This document shows positions 1 through 12,093 of a stretch of DNA of 64,000 bases, in pieces. The notes under the pieces were generated by a model. It was not told where the DNA came from. It did not search any database and saw only the letters and a program-made list of their open reading frames with translations. The first letter of the stretch is position 1, and the number at the start of each line of letters is the position of its first letter. The position numbers and the translations under genes are program-made. Origin of the DNA: an uncultured Bacteroidales bacterium (GTDB lineage: Bacteria > Bacteroidota > Bacteroidia > Bacteroidales > UBA932); contig ONII01000006.1 in NCBI GenBank assembly GCA_900317845.1, forward strand, positions 15,172-79,171, given 5' to 3'.

Positions 1-2
1 TC

Positions 3-1064
3 CGCTTCCAGACCAACGGCCGGTATTACACCACCTTAAGCGCCAGCTTTACGGAGCCTTGGCTGTTTGGTAAAAAGCCCACGTCCCTCAGCGTTTCCGG
101 GTACTACTCCCGTATGACGGACTCCTACCTTGCCATTGGTATCCTGTCCACGGACAAGATGTTCGAGGTATTCGGTTTCAACGCCGGTCTGGGTACGCGC
201 CTGAAGTGGCCGGACAACTATTTTGTCCTGTACAACAACCTGAGCTGGCAAACCTACAAACTCACCAACTGGACCAACAGTTACTTTGCCTTCAACGACG
301 GTATTTCCCACAACCTGAGCTATACCATCTCTCTTACGCGTAACTCCACGGACCAGCAGATTTACCCGCGTACCGGCTCGGAGTTCAGCCTGTCGCTGCA
401 ACTCACCCCGCCGTACTCCCTGTTCCGCAAATACACTTACAAGGACGGCCAGAAGGTTGCCGTAAACAGCTGGAAGGATGTTAATTATGACGATTGGACA
501 GCTGCCCAGCGCTACAAGTGGATTGAGTACCACAAGTGGAAGTTCAACGGCACAGTATACGCTAAACTGGTGGGAGACCTGGTGCTGATGACCCGCGCGC
601 AGTTCGGTTACCTGGGTTACTACAACCGCAACTGGGGCTATTCCCCGTTCGAGAACTTCCAGGTGGGCGGCGACGGCATGTCCGGCTACATGACCTACGG
701 TGCGGAAATCGTCTCCCTGCGTGGCTACGAGGACTATTCCCTGACCCCGCGCAAGCTCACCCCGTACAGCCAGAACGGTCTTAGCTATGCCGGTAACGTA
801 TACGATAAATTTACGGTGGAGCTCCGCTATCCGGTGATTCTGCAGCCGCAGAGCACGATATTTGTACTGGCCTTCCTGGAAGGCGGTAACTGCTGGAGCG
901 ACATCCGCGAATTCAACCCGTTCCAGATCAAGCGAAGCGCCGGTGTGGGTGTGCGTGTGTTCCTCCCGATGATCGGCCTGCTGGGTGTAGACTGGGGCTA
1001 CGGCTTCGACGGCGGTTCCACCGGCGGCAGCCACTTCCACTTTGTGTTAGGTCAACAGTTCTAA
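3..1064 (+). CDS. bamA: Outer membrane protein assembly factor BamA, C-terminal beta-barrel (5'-truncated by window edge)
   Basis: Frame open from position 3 (FTEPWLFGKKP), LRGY-type loop motif (IVSLRGYED), C-terminal FHFVLGQQF, followed by skp. Confidence 0.92.
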   Translation, partial: RFQTNGRYYTTLSASFTEPWLFGKKPTSLSVSGYYSRMTDSYLAIGILSTDKMFEVFGFNAGLGTRLKWPDNYFVLYNNLSWQTYKLTNWTNSYFAFNDGISHNLSYTISLTRNSTDQQIYPRTGSEFSLSLQLTPPYSLFRKYTYKDGQKVAVNSWKDVNYDDWTAAQRYKWIEYHKWKFNGTVYAKLVGDLVLMTRAQFGYLGYYNRNWGYSPFENFQVGGDGMSGYMTYGAEIVSLRGYEDYSLTPRKLTPYSQNGLSYAGNVYDKFTVELRYPVILQPQSTIFVLAFLEGGNCWSDIREFNPFQIKRSAGVGVRVFLPMIGLLGVDWGYGFDGGSTGGSHFHFVLGQQF

Positions 1065-1068
1065 TATT

Positions 1069-1095
1069 TGTCATTTCGAGCTTGTCGAGAAATCT
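1069..1095 (+). repeat. REP-like short palindrome TGTCATTTCGAG...TCGAGAAATCT
   Basis: Imperfect inverted repeat just after the bamA stop; related copies at 6333-6364 and 24708-24747 (minus). Confidence 0.6.
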
Positions 1096-1123
1096 CATAC
1101 AGAAACAATTAATATTAAAGGAT

Positions 1124-1696
1124 ATGAAAAAACTTATTGTCATCGCCCTTGCGGCCTTTGCAACCTTCACCCTTTCCGCCCAGACCCTGGGTAAGGTGAA
1201 CTTCAATGAACTCGTGATGCTGATGCCGGAAATGGACACCGCCCGCGAGGCCATCAACGCCTCCCAGAAAGAGGCGGAAGAAACCTACTCCGCCATGGTG
1301 GAAGAGTATCAGGGCAAGATGAACCAGTACCAGCAGAAGCAGGCCAGCTGGACAGCGGCCATCCGCGAATCCAAGGAGCGTGAGCTCATGGAAATCCAGA
1401 ACCGCATCCAGGAATTCCAGCAGTCCATCTCCCAGGAACTCCAGCAGCAGCAGAATCAGCTCACCGCTCCCATCCAGGAGAAAGCCGCCAAGGCCGTGAA
1501 CGAGATTGCCAAAGCCAAGGGCCTCACCGTCCTGTTCGATGCTTCCCAGGCACTGTACTTTGACGAATCCAAAGTGATCGACATTACTGCCGATGCCCGC
1601 AAAGCCCTGAACATCCCCGCGGACCGCACCCTGGAAAGCCTCCAGGCAGAGCTCCAGGCACAGGCCCAGGCCGCTCAAGCTGCTCAGGCCAAGTAG
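1124..1696 (+). CDS. skp: OmpH/Skp periplasmic chaperone
   Basis: Signal peptide MKKLIVIALAAF..., GKVNFNELV N-terminus, Q/E-rich coiled coil, VIDITAD C-terminal motif, downstream of bamA. Confidence 0.88.
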   Translation: MKKLIVIALAAFATFTLSAQTLGKVNFNELVMLMPEMDTAREAINASQKEAEETYSAMVEEYQGKMNQYQQKQASWTAAIRESKERELMEIQNRIQEFQQSISQELQQQQNQLTAPIQEKAAKAVNEIAKAKGLTVLFDASQALYFDESKVIDITADARKALNIPADRTLESLQAELQAQAQAAQAAQAK

Positions 1697-1720
1697 GCCA
1701 ATCTTTTTAGAAAATAATTG

Positions 1721-1779
1721 GGAATTCACTTTAATTTCTTTACATTTGTAACGGAATTAAGGTGAATTCCTTATTTTTT
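1721..1779 (+). terminator. Long hairpin terminator of bamA-skp overlapping the gdhA -7 promoter box (TACATTTG 1741-1748)
   Basis: 24-bp arms 1721-1744/1747-1770 with 21 Watson-Crick matches plus 2 G-U pairs on the + strand, followed by a T-rich tract. Confidence 0.65.
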
Positions 1780-1810
1780 ATAACCATAACACTAAAACAT
1801 CGTTTTTGTA

Positions 1811-3154
1811 ATGAAAACAACTGACATCATGGCACGCCTTCAGGCCAAGTATCCCTTGGAGAAGGAATATCTGCAGGCTGTGCAGGAAGTACTGGAATCC
1901 ATCGAAGAGGTGTACAACCAGCATCCTGAGTTTGAGAAAGCCAAGATTGTTGAACGGCTGGTGGAACCGGACCGCATCTTTACGTTCCGCGTTACCTGGA
2001 TCGACGACCGCGGGGAGGTACAGACCAACACCGGTTACCGCATCCAGTTCAACAGTGCCATCGGCCCTTATAAGGGCGGCCTCCGTTTCCATAAGGCCGT
2101 AACGCCTTCCATGCTCAAATTCCTGGGCTTTGAACAGACCTTCAAAAACGCCCTCACAACCCTTCCGATGGGCGGCGCCAAGGGCGGCTCTGACTTTGAC
2201 CCGGTGGGCAAATCCAACGACGAAATCATGCGTTTCTGCCAGGCTTTCATGCTGGAGCTGTGGAACTGCATCGGCCCGGATCAGGATATTCCTGCCGGCG
2301 ATGTTGGTGTAGGCGGTCGTGAAATCGGTTACCTGTATGGCATGTATAAAAAGCTGGCCCGCCAGTACAATACGGGCGTCCTCACCGGTAAGGGCGGCAC
2401 CTGGGGCGGCTCCATCCTTCGTCCGGAGGCCACCGGTTTCGGCGCCCTCTATTTCACCCAGCACCTGTTGAAGAAGGCCGGCAAGGATATCAAGGGCTGC
2501 AAGGTTGCACTCTCCGGCTTCGGCAATGTAGCCTGGGGCGCTGCTACTAAGGCCCGCGAACTGGGCGCCAAGGTGGTGGCCATCAGCGGCCCGGACGGCG
2601 TGTGCGAGATTCCGGATGGTATTACCCCGGAAATGATTGATTACATGCTGGTTATGCGTGCTTCCAACCGCAACAAAGTAGAGGATATGGCCACCAAGTT
2701 CCCCGGTCAGGCCAAGTTCACCGCCGGCAAGAAGAGCTGGAGCATCCCCGTGGACATTGCCCTGCCTTGCGCCTTCCAGAACGAACTCTCCGAGGAGGAT
2801 GCCAAGGAACTCAAGGCCAATGGCTGCTGGTGCTGCTGCGAGGTGTCCAACATGGGCTGCCAGCCCGGCGCCATCCACTTCTTCCAGCACAACGGTATCC
2901 TCTTCGCCCCCGGCAAGGCCGTGAATGCGGGCGGTGTGGCCACCAGCGGTCTGGAAATGACCCAGAACGCAGAGCACATCTCCTGGAGCGGGGAAGAAGT
3001 GGATGAGAAACTCCACTTCATCATGAAGTCCATCCACGAACAGTGCGTCAAGTACGGTACCCAGCCGGACGGCAGCGTGGACTATGTGAAGGGCGCCAAC
3101 ATCGCCGGCTTCATGAAAGTTGCCACCGCCATGCTGGAGCAAGGAACCATTTAG
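1811..3154 (+). CDS. gdhA: NADP-specific glutamate dehydrogenase
   Basis: GPYKGGLRFH, LPMGGAKGGSDFDP, DIPAGDVGVG, RPEATGFG, GFGNVA motifs. Confidence 0.96.
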   Translation: MKTTDIMARLQAKYPLEKEYLQAVQEVLESIEEVYNQHPEFEKAKIVERLVEPDRIFTFRVTWIDDRGEVQTNTGYRIQFNSAIGPYKGGLRFHKAVTPSMLKFLGFEQTFKNALTTLPMGGAKGGSDFDPVGKSNDEIMRFCQAFMLELWNCIGPDQDIPAGDVGVGGREIGYLYGMYKKLARQYNTGVLTGKGGTWGGSILRPEATGFGALYFTQHLLKKAGKDIKGCKVALSGFGNVAWGAATKARELGAKVVAISGPDGVCEIPDGITPEMIDYMLVMRASNRNKVEDMATKFPGQAKFTAGKKSWSIPVDIALPCAFQNELSEEDAKELKANGCWCCCEVSNMGCQPGAIHFFQHNGILFAPGKAVNAGGVATSGLEMTQNAEHISWSGEEVDEKLHFIMKSIHEQCVKYGTQPDGSVDYVKGANIAGFMKVATAMLEQGTI

Positions 3155-3173
3155 TTTCCCGGTCCCTTCTTTT

Positions 3174-3206
3174 ACGGTGTCTCATGAAAATGGGGCACCG
3201 TTTTTT
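3174..3206 (+). terminator. Rho-independent terminator of gdhA
   Basis: ACGGTGTCTCAT-GAAA-ATGGGGCACCGT followed by a T run. Confidence 0.8.
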
Positions 3207-3277
3207 ATTGGTAATATGTAAGGTTATCTTACAATTAATTGCTATCTTTGCAAGCTAAACTGTATTAACCATTTTAC

Positions 3278-4876
3278 ATGAAAAAACTGGTAGTCGCGCT
3301 TTGTCTGGCATCGCTTTTCCTGGTTTCCTGCGAGCAGAAAACCAGCAAGGGGGAGCGCCTGCTGGAGAATTATGCGCTGGTAACGATTCCTGCTCCGGAC
3401 CTTTCAGGAATCACGGATAATGGAAAAGAGGTCCTGAATCTGTATCGCTTTGCGGCAGACCAGGCAGATGCCATCTATTGGGAGCAGAGCTTTGGCCCCA
3501 AGTCCACCTTCGACAATTTGCAGGATCCCGCAGAGAAGGCCTTTGTCGATGTGAACTATGGCCCGTGGAACCGTATCGACGACCAACCTTTCCTGGAAGG
3601 GTACGGCCCCAAGCCGGAAGGTTCCCGTTTTTACCCGGAAGACATGACGGATGCGGAGTTCGAGGCCCTGGCAGATCCTGCCAAGTATAGCCCGTACACA
3701 CTCATCCAGCGTGCCAATGACGGATCCCTGAAGGTGGTGTGGTATCACGACGCCTATCAGGCCCAGGTAAAAAAGATGGCCGATATCCTCCGCGCCGCCG
3801 CCGACATCACCATCAAGGAGAGTGTCCGTAACTATCTGCTCAAGAAGGCGGAAGCCCTTCTCTCGGACAACTATTACGAGAGCGAAAAAGCCTGGCTGGA
3901 GATGACGGACAGCAAGATGGACCTGGTGATTGGCCCCAACGAAACCATCGACGATGAACGGTACGGCCTCAAGGCCTCCTATGGCGCCTATGTGCTCCTG
4001 AAGAACCTGGACCGCACGGCCAGCCTCCAGTCCCTGACCTCCCGTCTGCCGGAACTGCAGGCCTCCCTGCCCGGCGACGCCATCTACCATTCTTTCGTTC
4101 CGGGTGCGGAGTCCAACATTTTCTCCTGCGATGTCATCTATTACGGCGGTTACACCAATGCCGGTTACAAGGTCATTGCCATTAACTTCCCGTACGATAC
4201 CCGCGTCCAGGAGGAATTCGGTACCCGTACCATCCTGTTCGACAATGTCATTCGCGAAAAGTTCAACCGCACCGTTTTTCCTGCCGGCATGCAGCTGTTC
4301 GAGGGCGCGGATTGCGCGCACCTGGACGCAAATGCGTTCTATTGGGGCATCGTCTTCCGCGAAGTGGCCAAGGGACTGGGCGTGAAAGAGACCATCACCG
4401 GAAAAGGCACGGTGACCGAGGCCCTGGGCAATGAGGCCCTCACCCTGGAAAAAGCCAAATCCAACGTACTGGGCGCTTACCTCTGTGCCCGGGAAGTGGA
4501 AGACCACCGTATAGACGCCCTCATCATGAAGCCGGATGTGCTGGCCACCTTTGTGGCCAATGTCATCCGCTCCACGCGCTTTGGCTTTGGTGATGCCACC
4601 GGACGCGCCAACCTGGTCATTTACAATTATTTGATGGAACAGGGGGCCATTACCCGCAAGGCTTCCGGCAAATATGGCATTGATTATGCCAAAACGGAGG
4701 AAGCCATTGCTTCCCTGGGCGCCCAAATCCTGAAACTCCAGGCCCTGGGAGACCGCGAGGCCGCTACGGAGTTCGTGAACAAGTATGCCGTTGTGGCTTC
4801 CACCATCAAGGCCGACATCGTGAACCTGGAACTGGAAAAGATACCTGTGGATATCCGTTTCACCTACGAAAAATAA
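3278..4876 (+). CDS. Lipoprotein of the DPP III/M49-like family with degenerate zinc site (probable pseudopeptidase)
   Basis: Lipobox LFLVSC; family motifs NYGPWNRID, GANFYP-like GSRFYPEDMT, DLVIGPNE, IAINFP; REVAK where HEXXH is expected and EKAKS where EExKA is expected; TATCTTTG box at 3243-3250. Confidence 0.8.
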   Translation: MKKLVVALCLASLFLVSCEQKTSKGERLLENYALVTIPAPDLSGITDNGKEVLNLYRFAADQADAIYWEQSFGPKSTFDNLQDPAEKAFVDVNYGPWNRIDDQPFLEGYGPKPEGSRFYPEDMTDAEFEALADPAKYSPYTLIQRANDGSLKVVWYHDAYQAQVKKMADILRAAADITIKESVRNYLLKKAEALLSDNYYESEKAWLEMTDSKMDLVIGPNETIDDERYGLKASYGAYVLLKNLDRTASLQSLTSRLPELQASLPGDAIYHSFVPGAESNIFSCDVIYYGGYTNAGYKVIAINFPYDTRVQEEFGTRTILFDNVIREKFNRTVFPAGMQLFEGADCAHLDANAFYWGIVFREVAKGLGVKETITGKGTVTEALGNEALTLEKAKSNVLGAYLCAREVEDHRIDALIMKPDVLATFVANVIRSTRFGFGDATGRANLVIYNYLMEQGAITRKASGKYGIDYAKTEEAIASLGAQILKLQALGDREAATEFVNKYAVVASTIKADIVNLELEKIPVDIRFTYEK

Positions 4877-4891
4877 ACGTATCAATATATT

Positions 4892-6331
4892 ATGAAGTTC
4901 AATGCTAAATATATGGTATTCTTGCCGCTGGTGCTGGCAATTACCATATTCCTGTGGGCCGTCCCGGTATCCTTCTTCGGGATTGACGCCCTGACGGTTG
5001 TGCAGCAGCGCGTGATTGCCCTGTTTGTCTTTGCAGCCTTGATGTGGATTTTCGAAATTATTCCCAACTGGTCCACGTCGCTTCTTGTGATTGTGATTTC
5101 GCTGCTCACCGTGTCCAACAAGGGTATCGGCCTGTTCTGTGATCCGCAGTACGGAACGCTCGTCCCTTACGGCCGTATCATGGCTTCCATGGCGGACCCC
5201 GTGGTAATGCTGTTCCTGGGCGGCTTTGTGCTGGCTATCATGGCCGAGAAATACGGGCTGGATGTTACCCTGGCCCGCGCCCTCCTAAAACTGTTCGGCA
5301 CCAAGCCGGAAATTGTGCTGCTGGGTTTCCTCATCATGATTTCCGTGTTCTCCATGTTCATGAGCAACACGGCTACCGCCGCCATGATGCTGGCCCTGCT
5401 CACTCCGGTGCTTTCCAAGCTTCCGGCCGACGATAAAGGCAAGATCGGCCTGGCGCTGAGTATCCCCGTGGCCGCCAACCTGGGCGGTATCGGCACGCCC
5501 ATCGGTACGCCGCCCAATGCTACTGCCAAGGGCGCCCTGGAGCAGGCCGGCATTGACGTGAGCTTTGGCGAGTGGTGCGTTCACATGATTCCCTACGTGA
5601 TTGTGATGATTGTGATTGCCTGGATTCTCCTTCGCGTCATGTTCCCGTTCAAGACCAAGAAACTGGTGCTGGAGATTCCCGAAAGCCAGCAGAAGAAAGA
5701 CTGGAAACTGTACGTGGTATGGATTACCTTCGTGGGCACCATCCTGCTGTGGGCAACCGAGCAAATCACCCACATCAACTCCAATATTGTGGCTCTTATC
5801 CCGCTGGGCGTGTTCACTGCAACCGGCCTGTTCGGCAAGGAAGAAATCAAGGAGATTAACTGGAATGTGCTGTGGCTGGTAGCCGGTGGCTTCTGCCTGG
5901 GTTACTGCCTGCAGGACACCGGTCTTGCCAAGGTGCTCATCCAGGCCATTCCGTTCGGCAGCATGAGCGTAGTGCTGGTGCTGGTGGTGGCCGGTCTGGT
6001 GTGCTACCTGCTGAGTAACTTCATCTCCAACTCTGCTACGGCAGCACTGCTCATCCCTATTCTGATTGTGGTTGCCAACGGCATGGCAGACCCTGAAGCT
6101 GCCAACAACGCGGAGTTCCTGGCTCTGGGTGGCACTTCCGCCATGATTATCTTCATCGCCGTGTGTGCTTCCATCGCCATGCTGTTCCCCATTTCCACCC
6201 CTCCGAATGCCATCGCTTCCGCTACCGGCATGGTGGATACCAAGGATATGACCCGCGTGGGCCTGGTGATTGGTCTTATCGGCTTTGTGCTGGGCTATTT
6301 CTGGTTAACTAAACTTTTCCCGTTTGCTTAA
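4892..6331 (+). CDS. SLC13/DASS family anion transporter
   Basis: Many hydrophobic helices; SMFMSNTAT, GTPIGTPPN, FISNSATAA and PISTPPNAI motifs. Confidence 0.92.
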   Translation: MKFNAKYMVFLPLVLAITIFLWAVPVSFFGIDALTVVQQRVIALFVFAALMWIFEIIPNWSTSLLVIVISLLTVSNKGIGLFCDPQYGTLVPYGRIMASMADPVVMLFLGGFVLAIMAEKYGLDVTLARALLKLFGTKPEIVLLGFLIMISVFSMFMSNTATAAMMLALLTPVLSKLPADDKGKIGLALSIPVAANLGGIGTPIGTPPNATAKGALEQAGIDVSFGEWCVHMIPYVIVMIVIAWILLRVMFPFKTKKLVLEIPESQQKKDWKLYVVWITFVGTILLWATEQITHINSNIVALIPLGVFTATGLFGKEEIKEINWNVLWLVAGGFCLGYCLQDTGLAKVLIQAIPFGSMSVVLVLVVAGLVCYLLSNFISNSATAALLIPILIVVANGMADPEAANNAEFLALGGTSAMIIFIAVCASIAMLFPISTPPNAIASATGMVDTKDMTRVGLVIGLIGFVLGYFWLTKLFPFA

Positions 6332-6332
6332 T

Positions 6333-6364
6333 TGTCATACCGAGGCCCCAAGCCGAGTGTATCT
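6333..6364 (+). repeat. Diverged REP-like palindrome TGTCATACCGAG...CCGAGTGTATCT
   Basis: Shares the TGTCAT..CGAG / CGAG...ATCT ends with 1069-1095; intergenic after a stop codon. Confidence 0.45.
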
Positions 6365-6379
6365 CAAACTAGAAACCCG

Positions 6380-7678
6380 ATGAAAAAATTATTCATTCTT
6401 ACATTGGCAGCGCTGCTTACCGGCAGCGCCGCTTTTGCGCAGGACGCTCCCGTAGAGGAAAAGCCCTCGCACTTCAAGCTGTACGGCTTTGTCCGTAACT
6501 ACCTGGCCGCCGACAGCCGTGCCGTTAAAGCCGGTACGGAGGACCTGTACTTTTACATGCCCCAGGACAAGGAGATGTCCAAGGGCTTCGACAGCAATGG
6601 CGAATTCAACTGGCGTTTTGTTTCCCTGACCACCCGCCTGGGCCTGGACGTGTCCGGTTACAAGTGGGGGAAGATGGGTATCGGCGCCAAAGTGGAGGCG
6701 GACTTCTACTACCTTAGCGGGTCCGTTCCCACCCTACGCCTGCGCCAGGCCTTTGTCAAGCTTAACTGGGACGACAGCCGCTGGGCCCTCACCCTGGGCC
6801 AGACCTGGCACCCCATGGCCGTGGATATGCCCCATATGAACAACCTGGAAACCGGCGCTCCCTTCAATCCCTTCAACCGCAGCCCGCAGGCCCGGGTAGA
6901 CCTTTCCCTGGGTGGTGGTTTCAGCCTCACCGCCAGCCTCCTGTATCTGAACCACTACCTGCCCACCGGCCCGGACGGCAAGAGCAAGGATTACTTCAAG
7001 TATGGCCTGCCGGAGTTCTACTTTGGCGCCAGCTTCCAGAATGAGCATTTCCTGGCCCGCGTGGGCTTGGATATGGTCAATCTTCGGCCCTACCGTTCGC
7101 ACGCCGACTGGCGTGTGCAGGGAGACAATCCTCCCACCATCCAGGTGAAGAGCCTCCTGACCACCGTTTCCCCGTTCGCCTTCTTCCAGTATACCAACGG
7201 AAAGTTCCAGCTGCGCGCCAAGAGCATCCTGGGCCAGGGCGGCGAGCACCTCAACATGCTCTCAGGCTATGGTATCCACAGCCTGAACAATGACGGCACC
7301 ATCACCTATACCCCTATGCAGGACTGGGCTTCTTTTGTGAGTGTCTCTTACGGCAAAAAGATCCAGGTAATGGGCATGCTGGGCTACATGAAGCAGCTGG
7401 GTACCACCCAGGACCTTCTGGATAATCAGTTGTGGCTCAATAATTCTGCCGATACCCGCATCCAGCAGGCCTTCCGCGCCACGCCCACCATCGCCTGGAA
7501 CCTGGGCAAGTTCACCGTGTCGCTGGAGTACAACCTCACCGCCGCTCAGTTCGGCAATACCAAGGCCGCCGGCTTTGCCGCCGACGCAGCCCGTAACGCC
7601 CGCGGCATGTTCGCTCCCGCCGATATGCACTGGATTGTGAACCACCGTCTCATCTGCATGACCAAGTTTAATTTCTAG
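6380..7678 (+). CDS. DcaP-like outer membrane porin
   Basis: Signal peptide, FKLYGFVR, TTRLGLDV, VEADF, LRLRQAFV, LGQTWHPM motifs, terminal Phe. Confidence 0.72.
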   Translation: MKKLFILTLAALLTGSAAFAQDAPVEEKPSHFKLYGFVRNYLAADSRAVKAGTEDLYFYMPQDKEMSKGFDSNGEFNWRFVSLTTRLGLDVSGYKWGKMGIGAKVEADFYYLSGSVPTLRLRQAFVKLNWDDSRWALTLGQTWHPMAVDMPHMNNLETGAPFNPFNRSPQARVDLSLGGGFSLTASLLYLNHYLPTGPDGKSKDYFKYGLPEFYFGASFQNEHFLARVGLDMVNLRPYRSHADWRVQGDNPPTIQVKSLLTTVSPFAFFQYTNGKFQLRAKSILGQGGEHLNMLSGYGIHSLNNDGTITYTPMQDWASFVSVSYGKKIQVMGMLGYMKQLGTTQDLLDNQLWLNNSADTRIQQAFRATPTIAWNLGKFTVSLEYNLTAAQFGNTKAAGFAADAARNARGMFAPADMHWIVNHRLICMTKFNF

Positions 7679-7698
7679 ACGATTGGAAATATGTTTTT

Positions 7699-7731
7699 AG
7701 GGACAGGATGATTGGCCTGTCCCTTTTTTTT
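7699..7731 (+). terminator. Rho-independent terminator after the porin gene
   Basis: AGGGACAGG-N8-CCTGTCCCT followed by T7. Confidence 0.82.
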
Positions 7732-7768
7732 GCTATATTTGTACAATGACTTTTAAAATCTAACCACT

Positions 7769-9136
7769 ATGGGCGCATTTCATGCATATGACATTCGCGG
7801 AATCTGGGGGAAAGACTGGAACCTGGAAGACGCATATAAGGTGGGATACTTCATCCCCGAACTCCTGAAGACCAACAAAGTGCTGGTAGGCCGCGACTGC
7901 CGCCTCTCCGGCAAGGATATCCACGACGCCCTCATCAAGGGCATTACGGATGCCGGCGCAGACGTAGACGACATTGGCTACAGCTCCACGCCGCTGGTGT
8001 ACTTTGGCACCGCCAACTACGGGTACAAGGCATCGGTCCAAATCACCGCTTCCCACAATCCGCCGGAGTACAACGGCATGAAAGTGAGCCGTGAGAACGC
8101 TCTTCCCGTGGGCCTGGACACCGGCTTGGGCCAAATCAAGCAGTGGATCGACGAAGGCCGTCCCACGCCGCCTGCCGCCAAGAAGGGTTCGGTGAAGGAG
8201 ATTGACATCAAGCCGGACTACATTGCCTTCCTCAAAAAGTTCAAAGGGGACTACTCCAACCTGAAGATCGCCTTCGACCTGTCCAACGGCATGGCCACCC
8301 TCTTTGCCAAGGAAATCTACAAGGGAGAAAATGCCACTTATCTCTTTGACGAGATGGACGGCAGCTTCCCCAACCATGAGCCCAACCCGCTGGTAGCCAA
8401 GAATGTAGAGCCGCTCAAGAAACTGGTGGGAGAAATCAAGGCCGACATCGGCGTCATCTATGACGGCGACGCAGACCGCGTCATGTTCGTGGACGACAAA
8501 GCCCGCTTTGTGGCTCCGGACCTGGTGATTGCCCTTATGGCCCGCTATTTCTGCGACGAACGGGGAGAGAAGAATCCGCGCGTGCTGCAGGAAATCCGTT
8601 CCAGCCTGGCCGTGGCGGAGGAACTCCGCGCCAAATACAATGCGGACGTTCACACCTGGCGTGTAGGGCGTGCTTTCGCTGCTCCCAAACTTCGTGAAAT
8701 TGACGGCCTGTGGGGCGGTGAACTGGCCGGCCACTATTATTTCAAGGACTTCTTCTACAGCGACAGCGGCATGCTTGCCAGCATCATCGTCCTCAGAATC
8801 GTGAGCGCCCTCAAGAAGCAGGGTATCAAGCTCTCGGAGGAGATGGACCGCCTTACCAGGTATGAGAACTCCGGCGAAATCAACTACAAGGTAGAGGACA
8901 AGAAGGGCGCCATGGATGCCGTAAAGGCCCATTTCGAAAGCAAGGAAACGCCCACCAAGGTGATGGACTTCGACGGATACCGTCTGGAATTCCCCGGCTG
9001 GTGGTTCAACATCCGTCCTTCCAATACGGAGCCTTACCTCCGTTTCATCTGTGAGGCTACCTCGCAGGAACTCCTGAAAGAAAAGATTGCCCAGGCGGAC
9101 GCCATCATTGTGGGTCAGTTCGGCGGCAAACGGTAG
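7769..9136 (+). CDS. Phosphomannomutase/phosphoglucomutase
   Basis: AYDIRG, TASHNP active-site Ser, DGDADR metal loop, GELAGH, RPSNTEP; TATATTTG box 7734-7741. Confidence 0.95.
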   Translation: MGAFHAYDIRGIWGKDWNLEDAYKVGYFIPELLKTNKVLVGRDCRLSGKDIHDALIKGITDAGADVDDIGYSSTPLVYFGTANYGYKASVQITASHNPPEYNGMKVSRENALPVGLDTGLGQIKQWIDEGRPTPPAAKKGSVKEIDIKPDYIAFLKKFKGDYSNLKIAFDLSNGMATLFAKEIYKGENATYLFDEMDGSFPNHEPNPLVAKNVEPLKKLVGEIKADIGVIYDGDADRVMFVDDKARFVAPDLVIALMARYFCDERGEKNPRVLQEIRSSLAVAEELRAKYNADVHTWRVGRAFAAPKLREIDGLWGGELAGHYYFKDFFYSDSGMLASIIVLRIVSALKKQGIKLSEEMDRLTRYENSGEINYKVEDKKGAMDAVKAHFESKETPTKVMDFDGYRLEFPGWWFNIRPSNTEPYLRFICEATSQELLKEKIAQADAIIVGQFGGKR

Positions 9137-9139
9137 CGG

Positions 9140-10186
9140 ATGAAGAAAAGAATTGCACTTTGTTTAGCGGCTGTGTGTGCCTGTGTGCCTGTTTTCGGGC
9201 AAGCACAGGACCACACGGCCGATTCCCTGCGTCATATCTTTGGCCGGCAGGAGGTGAAAACCAACACCCGCATGGGCACCAAGTATGCGGATACGCTGGA
9301 TACCGGGAATCCGGCTGTCAAGGTGGTGCTGTACGACAATGGCACCTATCGGTACGTAAAGGACCCCTCTGCCGTAGCCGATACCACCTTGTTCACGGAG
9401 TTCTGGGACGAGCGTGCAGTAAACCCGTATCATCAGTCCCCGGATCCTATTCCGGACCAGTTCTCCATTTGGGTGCTGGATTCCCTGGATACCTATTGCT
9501 GTCCCTACCAGACTACCGTTCGTTCCAAGTTCGGGTATCGCCACGGCCGCCGGCACCAGGGCGTAGATTTGCCCTATCCCACCGGTACGCCCGTTCCGGC
9601 CGCTTTTTCCGGCAAGGTCCGTATTTCGGACTATGTGGGAGGCTACGGCAACCTAGTGGTTATACGCCATGCCAGCGGCCTGGAAACCTTCTATGCCCAT
9701 CTGTCCAAGCGCAACGTAAACACGGGGGATTGGGTGAGCGCAGGCGATATCATCGGCCTTGGCGGCTCTACGGGGCGTTCCACCGGACCGCACCTGCATT
9801 TCGAAACCCGTTACCGGGGGGCGGCATTCGATCCTTCCTGGCTTATCGACTTTGAGACCGGCACGCTGCGGCATCGCCTGCTCAAAGTGCGCAGCTGGTA
9901 CTTCAATCCCAACCAGCGCTATGTCCAGAACGTGGACGACGAAGACGAGATTTTCCGTACGGATGAGGAAGACCGCATCCTGGCAGAGCAGAAAGCCAAG
10001 GAAGAGGCTGCTGCCCGCGCCCGCGCAGAGGCTGCTGCGCAGAAGTACCATACTATCCGCAGCGGCGACACCTTGTCCGGCATCGCCAAGAAGTATCATA
10101 CCACGGTAAGGCGCATTTGTGCGCTCAATCCCGGCCTTACGGAGAGGACGGTGCTCAAGCTGGGCCGGAAAATTCGCGTGCGCTAG
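9140..10186 (+). CDS. M23 family peptidase with C-terminal LysM domain
   Basis: HQGVD, YAHLS, STGPHLHFE motifs; HTIRSGDTLSGIAKKY LysM. Confidence 0.92.
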   Translation: MKKRIALCLAAVCACVPVFGQAQDHTADSLRHIFGRQEVKTNTRMGTKYADTLDTGNPAVKVVLYDNGTYRYVKDPSAVADTTLFTEFWDERAVNPYHQSPDPIPDQFSIWVLDSLDTYCCPYQTTVRSKFGYRHGRRHQGVDLPYPTGTPVPAAFSGKVRISDYVGGYGNLVVIRHASGLETFYAHLSKRNVNTGDWVSAGDIIGLGGSTGRSTGPHLHFETRYRGAAFDPSWLIDFETGTLRHRLLKVRSWYFNPNQRYVQNVDDEDEIFRTDEEDRILAEQKAKEEAAARARAEAAAQKYHTIRSGDTLSGIAKKYHTTVRRICALNPGLTERTVLKLGRKIRVR

Positions 10187-10741
10187 CTATTTGAGTTTGG
10201 AATTGTAGTGAGGATGAACTTTTCCTTTCTGTATGTTCTGCAGTTTGGAAGAGATCATCTTCTTGCGTATAGGGGCGGCATGGTCCGTGAACAGGTCCCC
10301 GTCCAGGTGCGACAACTCGTGCTGGATCATGCGGGCGGCAAAGTTGTCAAACTCCTCCGTTACCTGCTGTAAATCCTCGTTGTAGTACCGTACGGTCATC
10401 TTTTTGGGACGGACTACGTCGCAGTAGACGCCGGGAATGCTCAGGCAGCCTTCCGAATAAGTGACTTTTTCCTCGCTCTCTTCCAGAATTTCCGGGTTGA
10501 TGAGCGTGCGGCGGAACCCCTTCAGGTAATCATAGGTGTCCGACACTACGTCGCCGTCCACAATGACCACACGGAGGCTCACGCCAATCTGGGGAGCGGC
10601 CAGGCCGCAGCCGTCCGCCACCACCAGGGTGTCCTTGAGGTCTTGCACCAGGGCTTGGATGCCCGCTTTGTCACTGAGGTCTGCCGGAGCAGCCGTTTTG
10701 CGCAGGACTTCTGCGCCGTACAGGTAGATGGGTTTTATCAT
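10187..10741 (-). CDS. def: Peptide deformylase
   Basis: GCGLAAPQIG, EGCLS, QHELSHLDG motifs. Confidence 0.96.
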   Translation of the reverse strand: MIKPIYLYGAEVLRKTAAPADLSDKAGIQALVQDLKDTLVVADGCGLAAPQIGVSLRVVIVDGDVVSDTYDYLKGFRRTLINPEILEESEEKVTYSEGCLSIPGVYCDVVRPKKMTVRYYNEDLQQVTEEFDNFAARMIQHELSHLDGDLFTDHAAPIRKKMISSKLQNIQKGKVHPHYNSKLK

Positions 10742-11223
10742 TTTTTTCTTCTTGTCTTGTTCATGGACAAACTGTCGGGTACGGCCGAAGGGTCTACGCT
10801 CAGGGTGCCGCCGTTTTCCCGGTCCAGGTAACTTTGCAGGATGATGGCGGCCGATATCTTGTCCACTTCCTTTTTGTCCCGGCGCTGGGAGGCTTTCATG
10901 CCGCCGTCTATCATGATGCGGTGGGCCAGCACGGATGTAAACCGTTCATCTTCAAGGGTGACGGGCGTGTCCGGGAATGCTTTTTCCAGTTGTTTCAGGA
11001 AGGCTTGCACGTCCCCAAGGGCCTCCGAAGGGCTGCCGTTCATGTTTACCGGGTAGCCCACTACAAAGCGAAGGATTCTCTCGCGGATGGCGTAATTTTT
11101 GATATAATCTATTAACTTTGTAGAATCAACTGTTTCCAGGGCAGATGCAAAGATGCCAAGAGGATCACTGACCGCCAGGCCGGTTCTCCTTTTTCCGTAG
11201 TCTATGCCAAGAATTCTGTCCAT
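10738..11223 (-). CDS. ruvX: Holliday junction resolvase-like/pre-16S rRNA nuclease YqgF (RuvX)
   Basis: ILGIDYGKRRTGLAVSD, DERFTS, VDKISAAIILQSYL. Confidence 0.94.
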   Translation of the reverse strand: MDRILGIDYGKRRTGLAVSDPLGIFASALETVDSTKLIDYIKNYAIRERILRFVVGYPVNMNGSPSEALGDVQAFLKQLEKAFPDTPVTLEDERFTSVLAHRIMIDGGMKASQRRDKKEVDKISAAIILQSYLDRENGGTLSVDPSAVPDSLSMNKTRRKK

Positions 11224-11250
11224 TTACAGTTTGCAAATATACGAATAATT

Positions 11251-12093
11251 ATGGATAAAGCAGATAAGAAGGCCAGTAACTTGCGTCTCACCCTGTTGGA
11301 TGCCACCTCCCATGAGCGGCTCTGGAGTCTCCGGTTTTCCCGGACCCACTTCATCATTGCCAATATCTCCCTGGTTGTGGTGGTGTTCCTGGCGATTTTC
11401 TGCCTTATCGCGTTTACGCCCATCCGCACCTTCATTCCCGGTTACCCCAACGCCCAGTCACGCCGGCAGGCCGTCCAGAATGCGCAGCGTATAGACTCGC
11501 TGCAAACGCGCATTCTGCAGTGGGAACTGTATACGGAAAATCTCAGGCGCGTGGTGGCGGGGGAGGACCCCATTCGTCTGGACACCCTTATGCTGGGCCG
11601 GGAAGGCTCGCGGGTGGTGTCGGATGCCCGCTACCTGGCCATCCGGGATTCCCTGCTTCGGGCCGATGTCGTCCAGGAAGAGCAATTTGGCCTGTCGTCT
11701 GCCCGGCGGCGGAACCTGCCCATCGAGGCAATGGCCTTCTACACGCCCGTAAAGGGGGTTGTTTCCAAAGGCTTCGACCGCAGTCTGCATCCCTGGGTGG
11801 ATGTTACGGCGCCCGTGGGCAGCCCGGTGATGGCGGTCCTGGATGGGAGTGTGGTATATACCTCCTGGTCGCAGGACAGTGGCTACACCCTGGTGCTCCA
11901 GCACGGAAGCGACCTTCTGTCCATTTACAAGAACAACCAAAAGCTGCTTCACAAAACCGGAGATGTCGTAAAAGCCGGCACGCCGGTGGCCATGCTGGCA
12001 TCGTCCACCTCGCTTACAAAAGGGGACCACTTGCATTTTGAGCTGTGGTACAAGGGCGTGGCTGTGGATCCGGCACAGTACATAAAATTTTAA
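11251..12093 (+). CDS. M23 family peptidase-domain membrane protein
   Basis: N-terminal TM segment, coiled coil, C-terminal M23 domain ending HLHFELW; typical position upstream of dxr. Confidence 0.85.
   Translation: MDKADKKASNLRLTLLDATSHERLWSLRFSRTHFIIANISLVVVVFLAIFCLIAFTPIRTFIPGYPNAQSRRQAVQNAQRIDSLQTRILQWELYTENLRRVVAGEDPIRLDTLMLGREGSRVVSDARYLAIRDSLLRADVVQEEQFGLSSARRRNLPIEAMAFYTPVKGVVSKGFDRSLHPWVDVTAPVGSPVMAVLDGSVVYTSWSQDSGYTLVLQHGSDLLSIYKNNQKLLHKTGDVVKAGTPVAMLASSTSLTKGDHLHFELWYKGVAVDPAQYIKF

Follow-up and report, generated by a model that had tools for sequence, protein, structure and literature searches.

We describe three co-oriented genes, here termed A, B, and C, in a 64,000-nucleotide stretch of DNA from an uncultured Bacteroidales bacterium (assembly GCA_900317845.1, contig ONII01000006.1, positions 15,172 to 79,171; source genome of 2.4 Mb in 39 contigs). 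This whole stretch is called the window, and all coordinates are counted from its first letter. Gene A (3278-4876, + strand, 532 aa) encodes a lipoprotein of the short (about 550 aa) M49/DPP III-like family that appears to have lost its catalytic function, gene B (4892-6331, + strand, 479 aa) encodes a DASS (SLC13-type) carrier, and gene C (6380-7678, + strand, 432 aa from its ATG) encodes an outer-membrane beta-barrel porin with a signal peptide, a remote relative of DcaP. We propose that A-B-C would act as one operon that moves a small anion across the envelope of rumen Cryptobacteroides. The anion would enter through the outer membrane by way of C, a DcaP-like anion porin. A would be a lipid-anchored periplasmic descendant of a DPP III-type zinc dipeptidyl-peptidase that has kept the clam-like two-lobe fold; at the periplasmic face of the carrier it would close on the anion, as DPP III does on a peptide, and would hand it to the transport domain of B, a putative sodium-coupled DASS elevator carrier of the inner membrane. 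A would thereby serve as a binding-protein-like accessory subunit. We give this flytrap-like hand-over a probability of about 0.5, and we consider it likely that A and the carrier work together as partners. That A binds a ligand and hands it over, which ligand this is, and which way transport runs are all inferred from the comparisons below.

Protein A aligns with the DPP III of Caldithrix abyssi (PDB 6EOM) with an E value of 1e-72 over residues 4-529, covering both lobes, and with 5ZUM with an E value of 3e-67; the latter is the Corallococcus enzyme, whose motif is reportedly HELMH. The Pfam profile PF03571 matches A at 21.5 bits (cut-off 21). In the Caldithrix enzyme the zinc ligands are His379, His383, and Glu412, the catalytic residue is Glu380, and the substrate is contacted by Glu240, Glu254, Asp310, Asn321, Asn324, and Glu326 (PMC5805324). 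These residues were mapped onto A through the 6EOM alignment. Where 6EOM reads HEISH, A reads REVAK (residues 361-365; 4358-4372, +), a replacement of HExxH that keeps the catalytic Glu (Glu380 to E362) and exchanges both His ligands, His379 for R361 and His383 for K365. Where 6EOM reads EECKAD, A reads EKAKSN (residues 391-396; 4448-4465, +), a replacement of EExKAD in which the zinc-ligand Glu412 has become K392 and the final Asp has become Asn. Two of the substrate contacts are kept, Glu240 as E222 and Asn321 as N303, and the other four positions, Glu254, Asp310, Asn324, and Glu326, are occupied by G236, Y292, Y306, and T308, respectively. Another His, invariant among HExxH copies of the family, is T441 in A, a position that presumably corresponds to the transition-state His in DPP III. 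Judged from these exchanges, the cleft of A would have lost its metal site and several acidic side chains, gained three basic ones, and become cationic. A is predicted to be without peptidase activity, against which its sequence argues. A preliminary description of this DNA had proposed a lipoprotein with a cationic dead active site, and both the lipobox (LVSC) and the change of the zinc ligands to R, K, and K bear it out. Every characterised DPP III enzyme is two-lobed and closes upon its ligand (PMC5805324), the movement that A may have retained.

Using A, B, and C as queries against 41 related genomes, 401 genomes of the genus Cryptobacteroides, and 401 genomes of the order, we fetched about 190 loci. 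These yielded 163 distinct A-family proteins, which fall into three classes by their site. HExxH together with EExKAD was found in 18 proteins, whose sources are other families of the order and basal lineages of the genus. RExxH was found in 70 proteins, with one His kept and often the Glu ligand too. The remaining 75 proteins carry RExxK or RExxQ with EKAKSN and form one clade, the window's A included. All 75 have R and then K or Q at the zinc-His positions, and K392 is invariant among them. Mean conservation within this clade is about 0.94 at literature-defined positions (11 fixed beforehand from PMC5805324, plus Glu380 and Glu411) versus 0.78 over all columns, a comparison confined to pre-chosen positions, the conservation permutation test being partly circular where sites had been picked as conserved. 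The ratio of nonsynonymous to synonymous substitution rates (dN/dS) of A is 0.08-0.17 in ten comparisons with a synonymous divergence (dS) of 0.15-1.2, alongside 0.03-0.09 for B and 0.14-0.25 for C, and the A frames are intact in almost all genomes searched. By these measures A is under purifying selection: because dN/dS is low, frames are intact, and the site is conserved above average, we read the site as maintained and remodelled rather than decaying.

A remodelled site could nevertheless be that of an enzyme. A may still be a hydrolase, with another metal arrangement or none, that works in the periplasm on some anionic precursor (an acidic peptide, for example, or an N-acyl amino acid), with B importing the product. 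The ancestors of A are periplasmic dipeptidyl-peptidases, enzyme-transporter gene pairs are common, and nearly every copy retains E362, E391, and K394 (5 of the 75 RExxK/Q proteins have E at the position of K394); the His and the frequent Glu ligand retained by the RExxH subgroup would also fit. However, the zinc ligands have changed to R, K (or Q), and K and the conserved His to Thr441, changes that are invariant or nearly so in the window's clade, and a tether of only 11-19 residues to the carrier, as seen in the natural fusions described below, would be less expected for an enzyme than for a binding domain. We therefore regard a surviving enzymatic role as distinctly unlikely.

Elsewhere in the same genome (contig C22:236613-237659) there is a canonical DPP III of the long kind, about 680 aa in size and 28% identical to A over 324 residues, so A is an extra, diverged paralogue and not the sole M49 protein. 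Among the 150 nearest representatives of clusters built at 50% identity (P0121-P0270), about one third lack at least one zinc ligand, and the replacements among these short M49 proteins are varied (Y-E-x-x-D/N, W-E-x-x-N, Q-E-x-x-R, and R-E-x-x-R are examples). Catalysis seems to have been lost many times within the short M49 family.

Among the fetched loci, nearly all zinc-deficient members of the A family are found beside transporter genes, and zinc-competent members are not. We defined a transporter neighbour as one within 400 bp, in one cluster, or fused, and copies at contig ends were left out. None of the 16 HExxH copies has a transporter neighbour, and within the genus the gene upstream of them is triosephosphate isomerase. 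Among zinc-deficient copies, 138 of 140 adjoin or are fused to a transporter gene. REVAK-type copies adjoin a DASS gene in every case that could be scored (73/73), with two others lying at contig ends. The companionship of the REVAK variant and DASS genes, proposed from this one locus, thus turned out positive beyond expectation, with the natural fusions in addition. The partners of zinc-deficient A are B itself, a DASS paralogue (B', about 52% identical to B), and, in 15 cases, an AspT/YidE-family permease (PF06826 twice plus TrkA_C; NF003007, 604 bits). A third kind of partner is seen for one RExxH copy (L101:5148-9575), which lies 3 nt 3′ of a polar-amino-acid ATP-binding cassette (ABC) importer consisting of a fused family-3 binding domain and permease followed by an ATPase. 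Two changes of site class suffice for the A tree, from HExxH to RExxH and then from RExxH to RExxK/Q. The partner type changes at least 13 times and the state "any transporter versus none" only 4 times, so adjacency to a carrier was kept through many rearrangements.

The loci occur in several arrangements: A-B-C, A-B-C-C′, A divergent from B-C, B′-A, and A-B′-A, the last with two different A paralogues around one carrier and often with a LysR regulator alongside. The C porin lies 3′ of B in most B-type loci, and A + B′ pairs are without a porin. The preliminary description had envisaged a three-part system. The porin indeed follows the DASS gene in most loci; the triad is modular rather than fixed, as A also goes with B′ or an AspT/YidE permease and B-C pairs occur without A. 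In one clade (L090-L100, L112-L114, L120, and similar loci) the gene order is BamA, Skp, two subunits of 2-oxoacid:ferredoxin oxidoreductase, gdhA, (A) B C. In G023 (L120) A is absent and B and C come immediately after gdhA, an order suggesting that the B-C pair is older and that A later entered between it and gdhA. Outside the genus, in 400 genomes of the order, matches to A are at most 43% identical with a single exception (G743, L201), from another family. This copy shares 54% identity, is of the zinc-deficient type, and stands after an AspT/YidE-family permease gene; horizontal transfer may account for it, or the genome may be a taxonomic neighbour. HExxH is the reading in all 14 copies fetched from outside the genus.

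Shared neighbourhood can also be a matter of descent. The block BamA-Skp-gdhA-A-B-C is syntenic across the genus, all data except G743 come from this one genus, and A, B, and C might be neighbours through inherited synteny in a young genus, with no functional link among them. Yet A has re-associated elsewhere with the second DASS paralogue, with AspT/YidE permeases, and with an ABC system, and HExxH copies of the same genus have no transporter neighbours. The fusions, moreover, have persisted in two diverged clades, and assembly error is a disfavoured source for them, since they turn up in 14 clusters drawn from many samples. The chance that the three genes are functionally unrelated appears next to negligible.

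The closest association of A with the carrier is seen where the two are one protein. In three genomes we found a single frame of about 1004 aa that consists of a B part (81% identical), a 19-residue linker, and the mature A domain. The signal peptide and lipobox are absent from the fused A domain and are replaced by the C-terminus of the DASS part. A cluster search with the A part of the fusion frame against a set of 5.8 billion proteins identified 14 protein clusters of 983-1004 aa with the same DASS::A architecture, falling into two clades with different linkers of 11-19 residues. Their A domains share only 44-60% identity with the A of the window and are without exception zinc-deficient, and the DASS motifs are kept in all 14 proteins. 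One fusion occupies the locus equivalent to that of the window's A-B-C genes, in the order BamA, Skp, gdhA, DASS::A, and a C homologue (52% identical), with a 2-base gap between the called genes.

The fusions also bear on where A resides. In VcINDY the C-terminus lies at the extracellular surface (PMC7553777). The alignment of B with VcINDY extends to within 16 residues of the end of B; together these would place the fused A domain in the periplasm, at the carrier. Free A has a signal peptide with the lipobox LVSC (Cys18; 3278-3331, +) followed by E-Q-K-T-S-K. Surface-exposed lipoproteins of Bacteroidetes carry an acidic export signal right after the lipidated Cys. This signal is absent after Cys18 of A, and the consensus of the RExxK/Q clade is basic there. 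The topology of the fusions and the secreted-lipoprotein nature of A are in agreement, both predicting a periplasmic A. The earlier view of A as the capture step is accordingly qualified, since the fusions put A at the inner-membrane carrier, on the periplasmic side, and not as a free capture step tied to the porin. In an AlphaFold2 model of the 1004-aa fusion both halves fold (mean predicted local distance difference test score, pLDDT, 81) and the linker is disordered; the predicted template modelling score of 0.55 gives no confident domain placement. Co-folding of B with mature A scored 0.00 in a run made without controls, a value that counts neither for nor against binding.

What the fusions and the conserved adjacency demonstrate is partnership only. 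A could be a subunit with a role in structure, assembly, or regulation, one that stabilises the carrier or gates it from the periplasmic side and binds no ligand. Such a subunit would agree with the persistence of B-C pairs without A in relatives, and the unrelated folds of the carriers (DASS, AspT/YidE, and one ABC) would fit a generic modulator; other dead peptidase domains have become regulators. However, the cleft residues are near-invariant and cationic, which points to a small-ligand site over a protein-protein surface, and the A-B′-A loci resemble transporters with several binding proteins. We consider a non-binding role unlikely, if worth taking seriously.

Several observations weigh against the proposal that A is a binding subunit. 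No characterised DASS carrier is known to work with a binding protein. Characterised members of the AspT family are exchangers or exporters, for which a binding protein would be unusual. B-C is found without a nearby A in G001, G003, G009, and G020, which have no A-family match, and in G014 and G021, where A lies elsewhere. The carrier is therefore not strictly dependent on A, and the triad is modular. E222, the amine anchor that is kept in A, is not conserved in the second fusion clade, and ligand geometry may therefore differ between the clades. Among zinc-less variants from other lineages, the four contexts checked show no consistent transporter neighbour: one has an S41 peptidase, one an MFS gene 437 bp upstream, one nothing telling, and one exonuclease VII. 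The link to transporters is thus not generalisable beyond the Cryptobacteroides clade. Lastly, the contrast of 0/16 with 138/140 amounts to one evolutionary event, because the H-to-R change and the first association with a transporter occurred once, in one genus.

The carrier B matches the DASS model TIGR00785 at 243.3 bits (cut-off 198.6) as well as the Pfam families CitMHS and Na_sulph_symp, in line with its first assignment as an SLC13/DASS carrier. DASS carriers include the human citrate and dicarboxylate transporters. Among PDB entries B matches PHO90 (E 6e-38, the top match) and VcINDY (E 3e-36). The first hairpin-tip motif, SNTATAA (residues 158-164; 5363-5383, +), is identical in VcINDY. 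The second, SNSATAA (residues 379-385; 6026-6046, +), corresponds to SNTASAA in VcINDY and is conserved in the 14 fusion proteins. The GTPPNA and STPPNA segments of B align to the PPN motifs of VcINDY, which together with the SNT motifs belong to the sodium/substrate site, and the residues of PHO90 differ at both the SNT/SNS and the PPN positions. Phosphate and sulfate were considered as substrates given the PHO90 top match and are ranked below dicarboxylates as candidates, because the tip motifs of B match VcINDY and not PHO90. We put roughly even odds on the substrate being either a C4-dicarboxylate (succinate, for example) or an acidic amino acid (for example, aspartate). This candidate class is suggested by the VcINDY-type motifs of B, by the alternative partners of A (the aspartate:alanine-antiporter family and the polar-amino-acid ABC importer), and by the anion-porin matches of C, and more weakly by the adjacency of gdhA and, in one clade, of 2-oxoacid:ferredoxin oxidoreductase.

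The same gene set might instead run outward. B and the AspT/YidE partners would then release a fermentation end product such as succinate, with C as its outlet and A aiding release or blocking re-uptake. Bacteroidales excrete succinate, the AspT family includes exporters and exchangers, and DASS carriers are reversible in principle. Against an exporter, B retains the sodium-symporter-type SNT motifs of VcINDY, and the 2-oxoacid:ferredoxin oxidoreductase and gdhA beside the locus in some relatives would consume an imported dicarboxylate, a weak argument. Extracytoplasmic partners of the binding type, furthermore, are known for importers only (PMC12344293). Export appears very unlikely to us, and uptake with A as the binding subunit remains the reading that we prefer.

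Protein C has no Pfam match of its own (none to PF19577 even at E 10), and a sequence search of the PDB with it was also empty. Its AlphaFold2 model (pLDDT 87.9) was compared with folds in the PDB, and the best match is DcaP of Acinetobacter (6EUS) with an E value of 2e-15 and template modelling scores of 0.62 by query and 0.76 by target. The next fold matches are anion porins such as Omp32. PF19577 is matched by 6 of 38 C relatives (best E 7e-7), and the Atlas neighbours of C partly carry it. The label "DcaP-like porin" given in the preliminary description is thereby upheld at the level of fold, 6EUS being the best solved match. In the model the signal-peptide cleavage region is separated from the first strand by about 10 residues, with no coiled coil. 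C is also the most variable member of the unit in one close pair: compared with L021 (G010), C is 67% identical with a dS of 1.37, next to 96-97% identity for A and B with dS of 0.15 and 0.46. The porin is likewise far more diverged than its neighbours in other close relatives, and this pattern looks like allelic replacement or recombination. At some loci a Porin_4/Porin_O_P-type porin is found in place of C or in addition to it.

The intergenic gaps are 15 bp between A and B and 48 bp between B and C, and the ORF coordinates match the three co-oriented genes and the spacing first reported. In assemblies of rumen metatranscriptomes from two studies, contigs 95-99% identical to the window cover A, B, and C at similar depth. 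Some of these bridge the gene junctions, at 4153-5362 and 3982-5896 for A/B and at 5920-7564 for B/C. The bridging contigs are consistent with co-transcription of A-B-C and stop short of proof, as contigs do not establish one continuous transcript and DNA carry-over is possible. In four of four rumen RNA-library assemblies the 48-nt spacer at 6332-6379 is replaced by CCT, so that B and C almost abut. A TTG at 6332, in frame with C, was considered as the start of C and rejected; the signal peptide begins at the ATG at 6380, and the TTG is unlikely as a start because these strains have three bases in place of 6332-6379.

The promoter consensus at -7 in Bacteroidetes is TAnnTTTG. The box TATCTTTG (3243-3250, +) fits it, and 65 of 75 orthologous loci have a TAnnTTTG box 31-44 nt 5′ of the start of A. 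Metatranscriptome contigs on A begin at 3266-3279; the start at 3266 was seen in two runs, in one of them right after adapter-like letters, which is a weak hint. A sigma-70 scan site (TTGGTA/TACAAT at 3208-3235) was set aside, as the sigma-70 model is unsuited to Bacteroidetes. Downstream of C a terminator-like hairpin (7699-7724, +; 9 pairs, 6 of them G-C) with a run of eight T reaching 7731 marks the 3′ border of the unit. The promoter at 3243 and the terminator at 7699 that had been described as enclosing the three genes are thus both recovered, as this box and this hairpin. The 5′ border is formed by another hairpin with a T-run (3174-3201, T-run to 3207, +; 12 pairs, 6 G-C) that closes the upstream gene gdhA (1811-3154). 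An Rfam scan of window positions 1-12000 returned no Rfam family and hence no known riboswitch. The unit is flanked by genes of ordinary envelope and metabolic function: BamA (its C-terminal part, 3-1064), Skp/OmpH (1082-1696), and gdhA on one side, and on the other a phosphomannomutase/phosphoglucomutase-family gene (7769-9136), which has a TAnnTTTG box of its own near 7728, and a gene for an M23-LysM peptidase (9140-10186). Two antisense frames, at 3404-4885 (- strand, 493 aa) over A and at 1778-3142 (- strand, 454 aa) over gdhA, were rejected as shadow frames; clusters of both in relatives only mirror the sense genes, and their codon-usage scores are below those of the sense frames.

Full-text literature searches found no paper linking M49 pseudopeptidases to transport, and what few names databases give to A-family proteins are "hypothetical protein" or, for zinc-competent relatives, "Zn-dependent hydrolase". 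The known binding-protein-assisted secondary transporters are TRAP, TTT, and TAXI-GltS, in which the binding protein always has a classical periplasmic-binding-protein fold, and DASS carriers are thought to act alone. A peptidase-derived partner, if real, would be a new origin of binding proteins and a clean case of a pseudoenzyme passing into transport, with the intermediate steps surviving in living species, and the natural fusions would be ready targets for cryo-electron microscopy of a carrier with its partner. The proposal also bears on how abundant uncultured Cryptobacteroides of rumen and gut acquire or exchange dicarboxylates, succinate being a central currency there. We tentatively suggest, at somewhat less than even chance, that zinc-less DPP III descendants make up a new class of solute-binding subunit, extracytoplasmic and serving secondary carriers. 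A-B-C would on the same tentative footing be the first binding-protein-assisted DASS transporter, with a domain, lipoprotein or fused, that also serves AspT/YidE permeases.

Each component has a characterised counterpart from which it departs. With the DPP III enzymes of Caldithrix (6EOM) and Corallococcus (5ZUM), A shares full-length homology, size, two lobes, and a signal peptide with an N-terminal Cys; unlike them, A lacks the three zinc ligands and several substrate contacts, and its genomic partner is a transporter. B shares the SNT/SNS and PPN motifs of VcINDY and other bacterial DASS symporters, and their topology as far as aligned, but an extracytoplasmic partner adjoins it or is fused to it, a porin gene lies next to its own, and PHO90 scores equally well. 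C has DcaP of Acinetobacter baumannii (6EUS) as its best fold match, yet the two are only 17% identical and C is without a PF19577 match. DcaP is a trimer with a long N-terminal periplasmic coiled coil, whereas the model of C has no long coiled-coil segment before the barrel. The reuse of a metallopeptidase fold minus its zinc ligands as a non-catalytic envelope partner is familiar from the dead LytM/M23 factors EnvC and NlpD. A differs from these in fold and in having transporters rather than amidases as partners, and EnvC and NlpD are regulators with no known small-ligand role. The nearest likeness is to TRAP systems (DctP or TAXI with DctQM) and to TAXI-GltS, a binding-protein-dependent secondary transporter described in 2025 (PMC12344293), in all of which an extracytoplasmic partner is encoded beside a sodium-coupled elevator-type carboxylate carrier. 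The membrane part of TRAP shares the DASS fold (PMC12344293), and tethered or fused binding domains occur in these systems. In contrast to TRAP, TTT, and TAXI-GltS, whose partners (DctP, TctC, TAXI) have the periplasmic-binding-protein fold, A has an M49 peptidase fold. Its carrier is a genuine DASS protein or an AspT/YidE permease, the dependence of that carrier on A is probably non-obligate, and the binding by A is a proposed rather than an established property. Set beside these systems, A-B-C points to an undescribed form of helper-protein-assisted nutrient uptake, with a substantial chance that A represents a new class of binding subunit.

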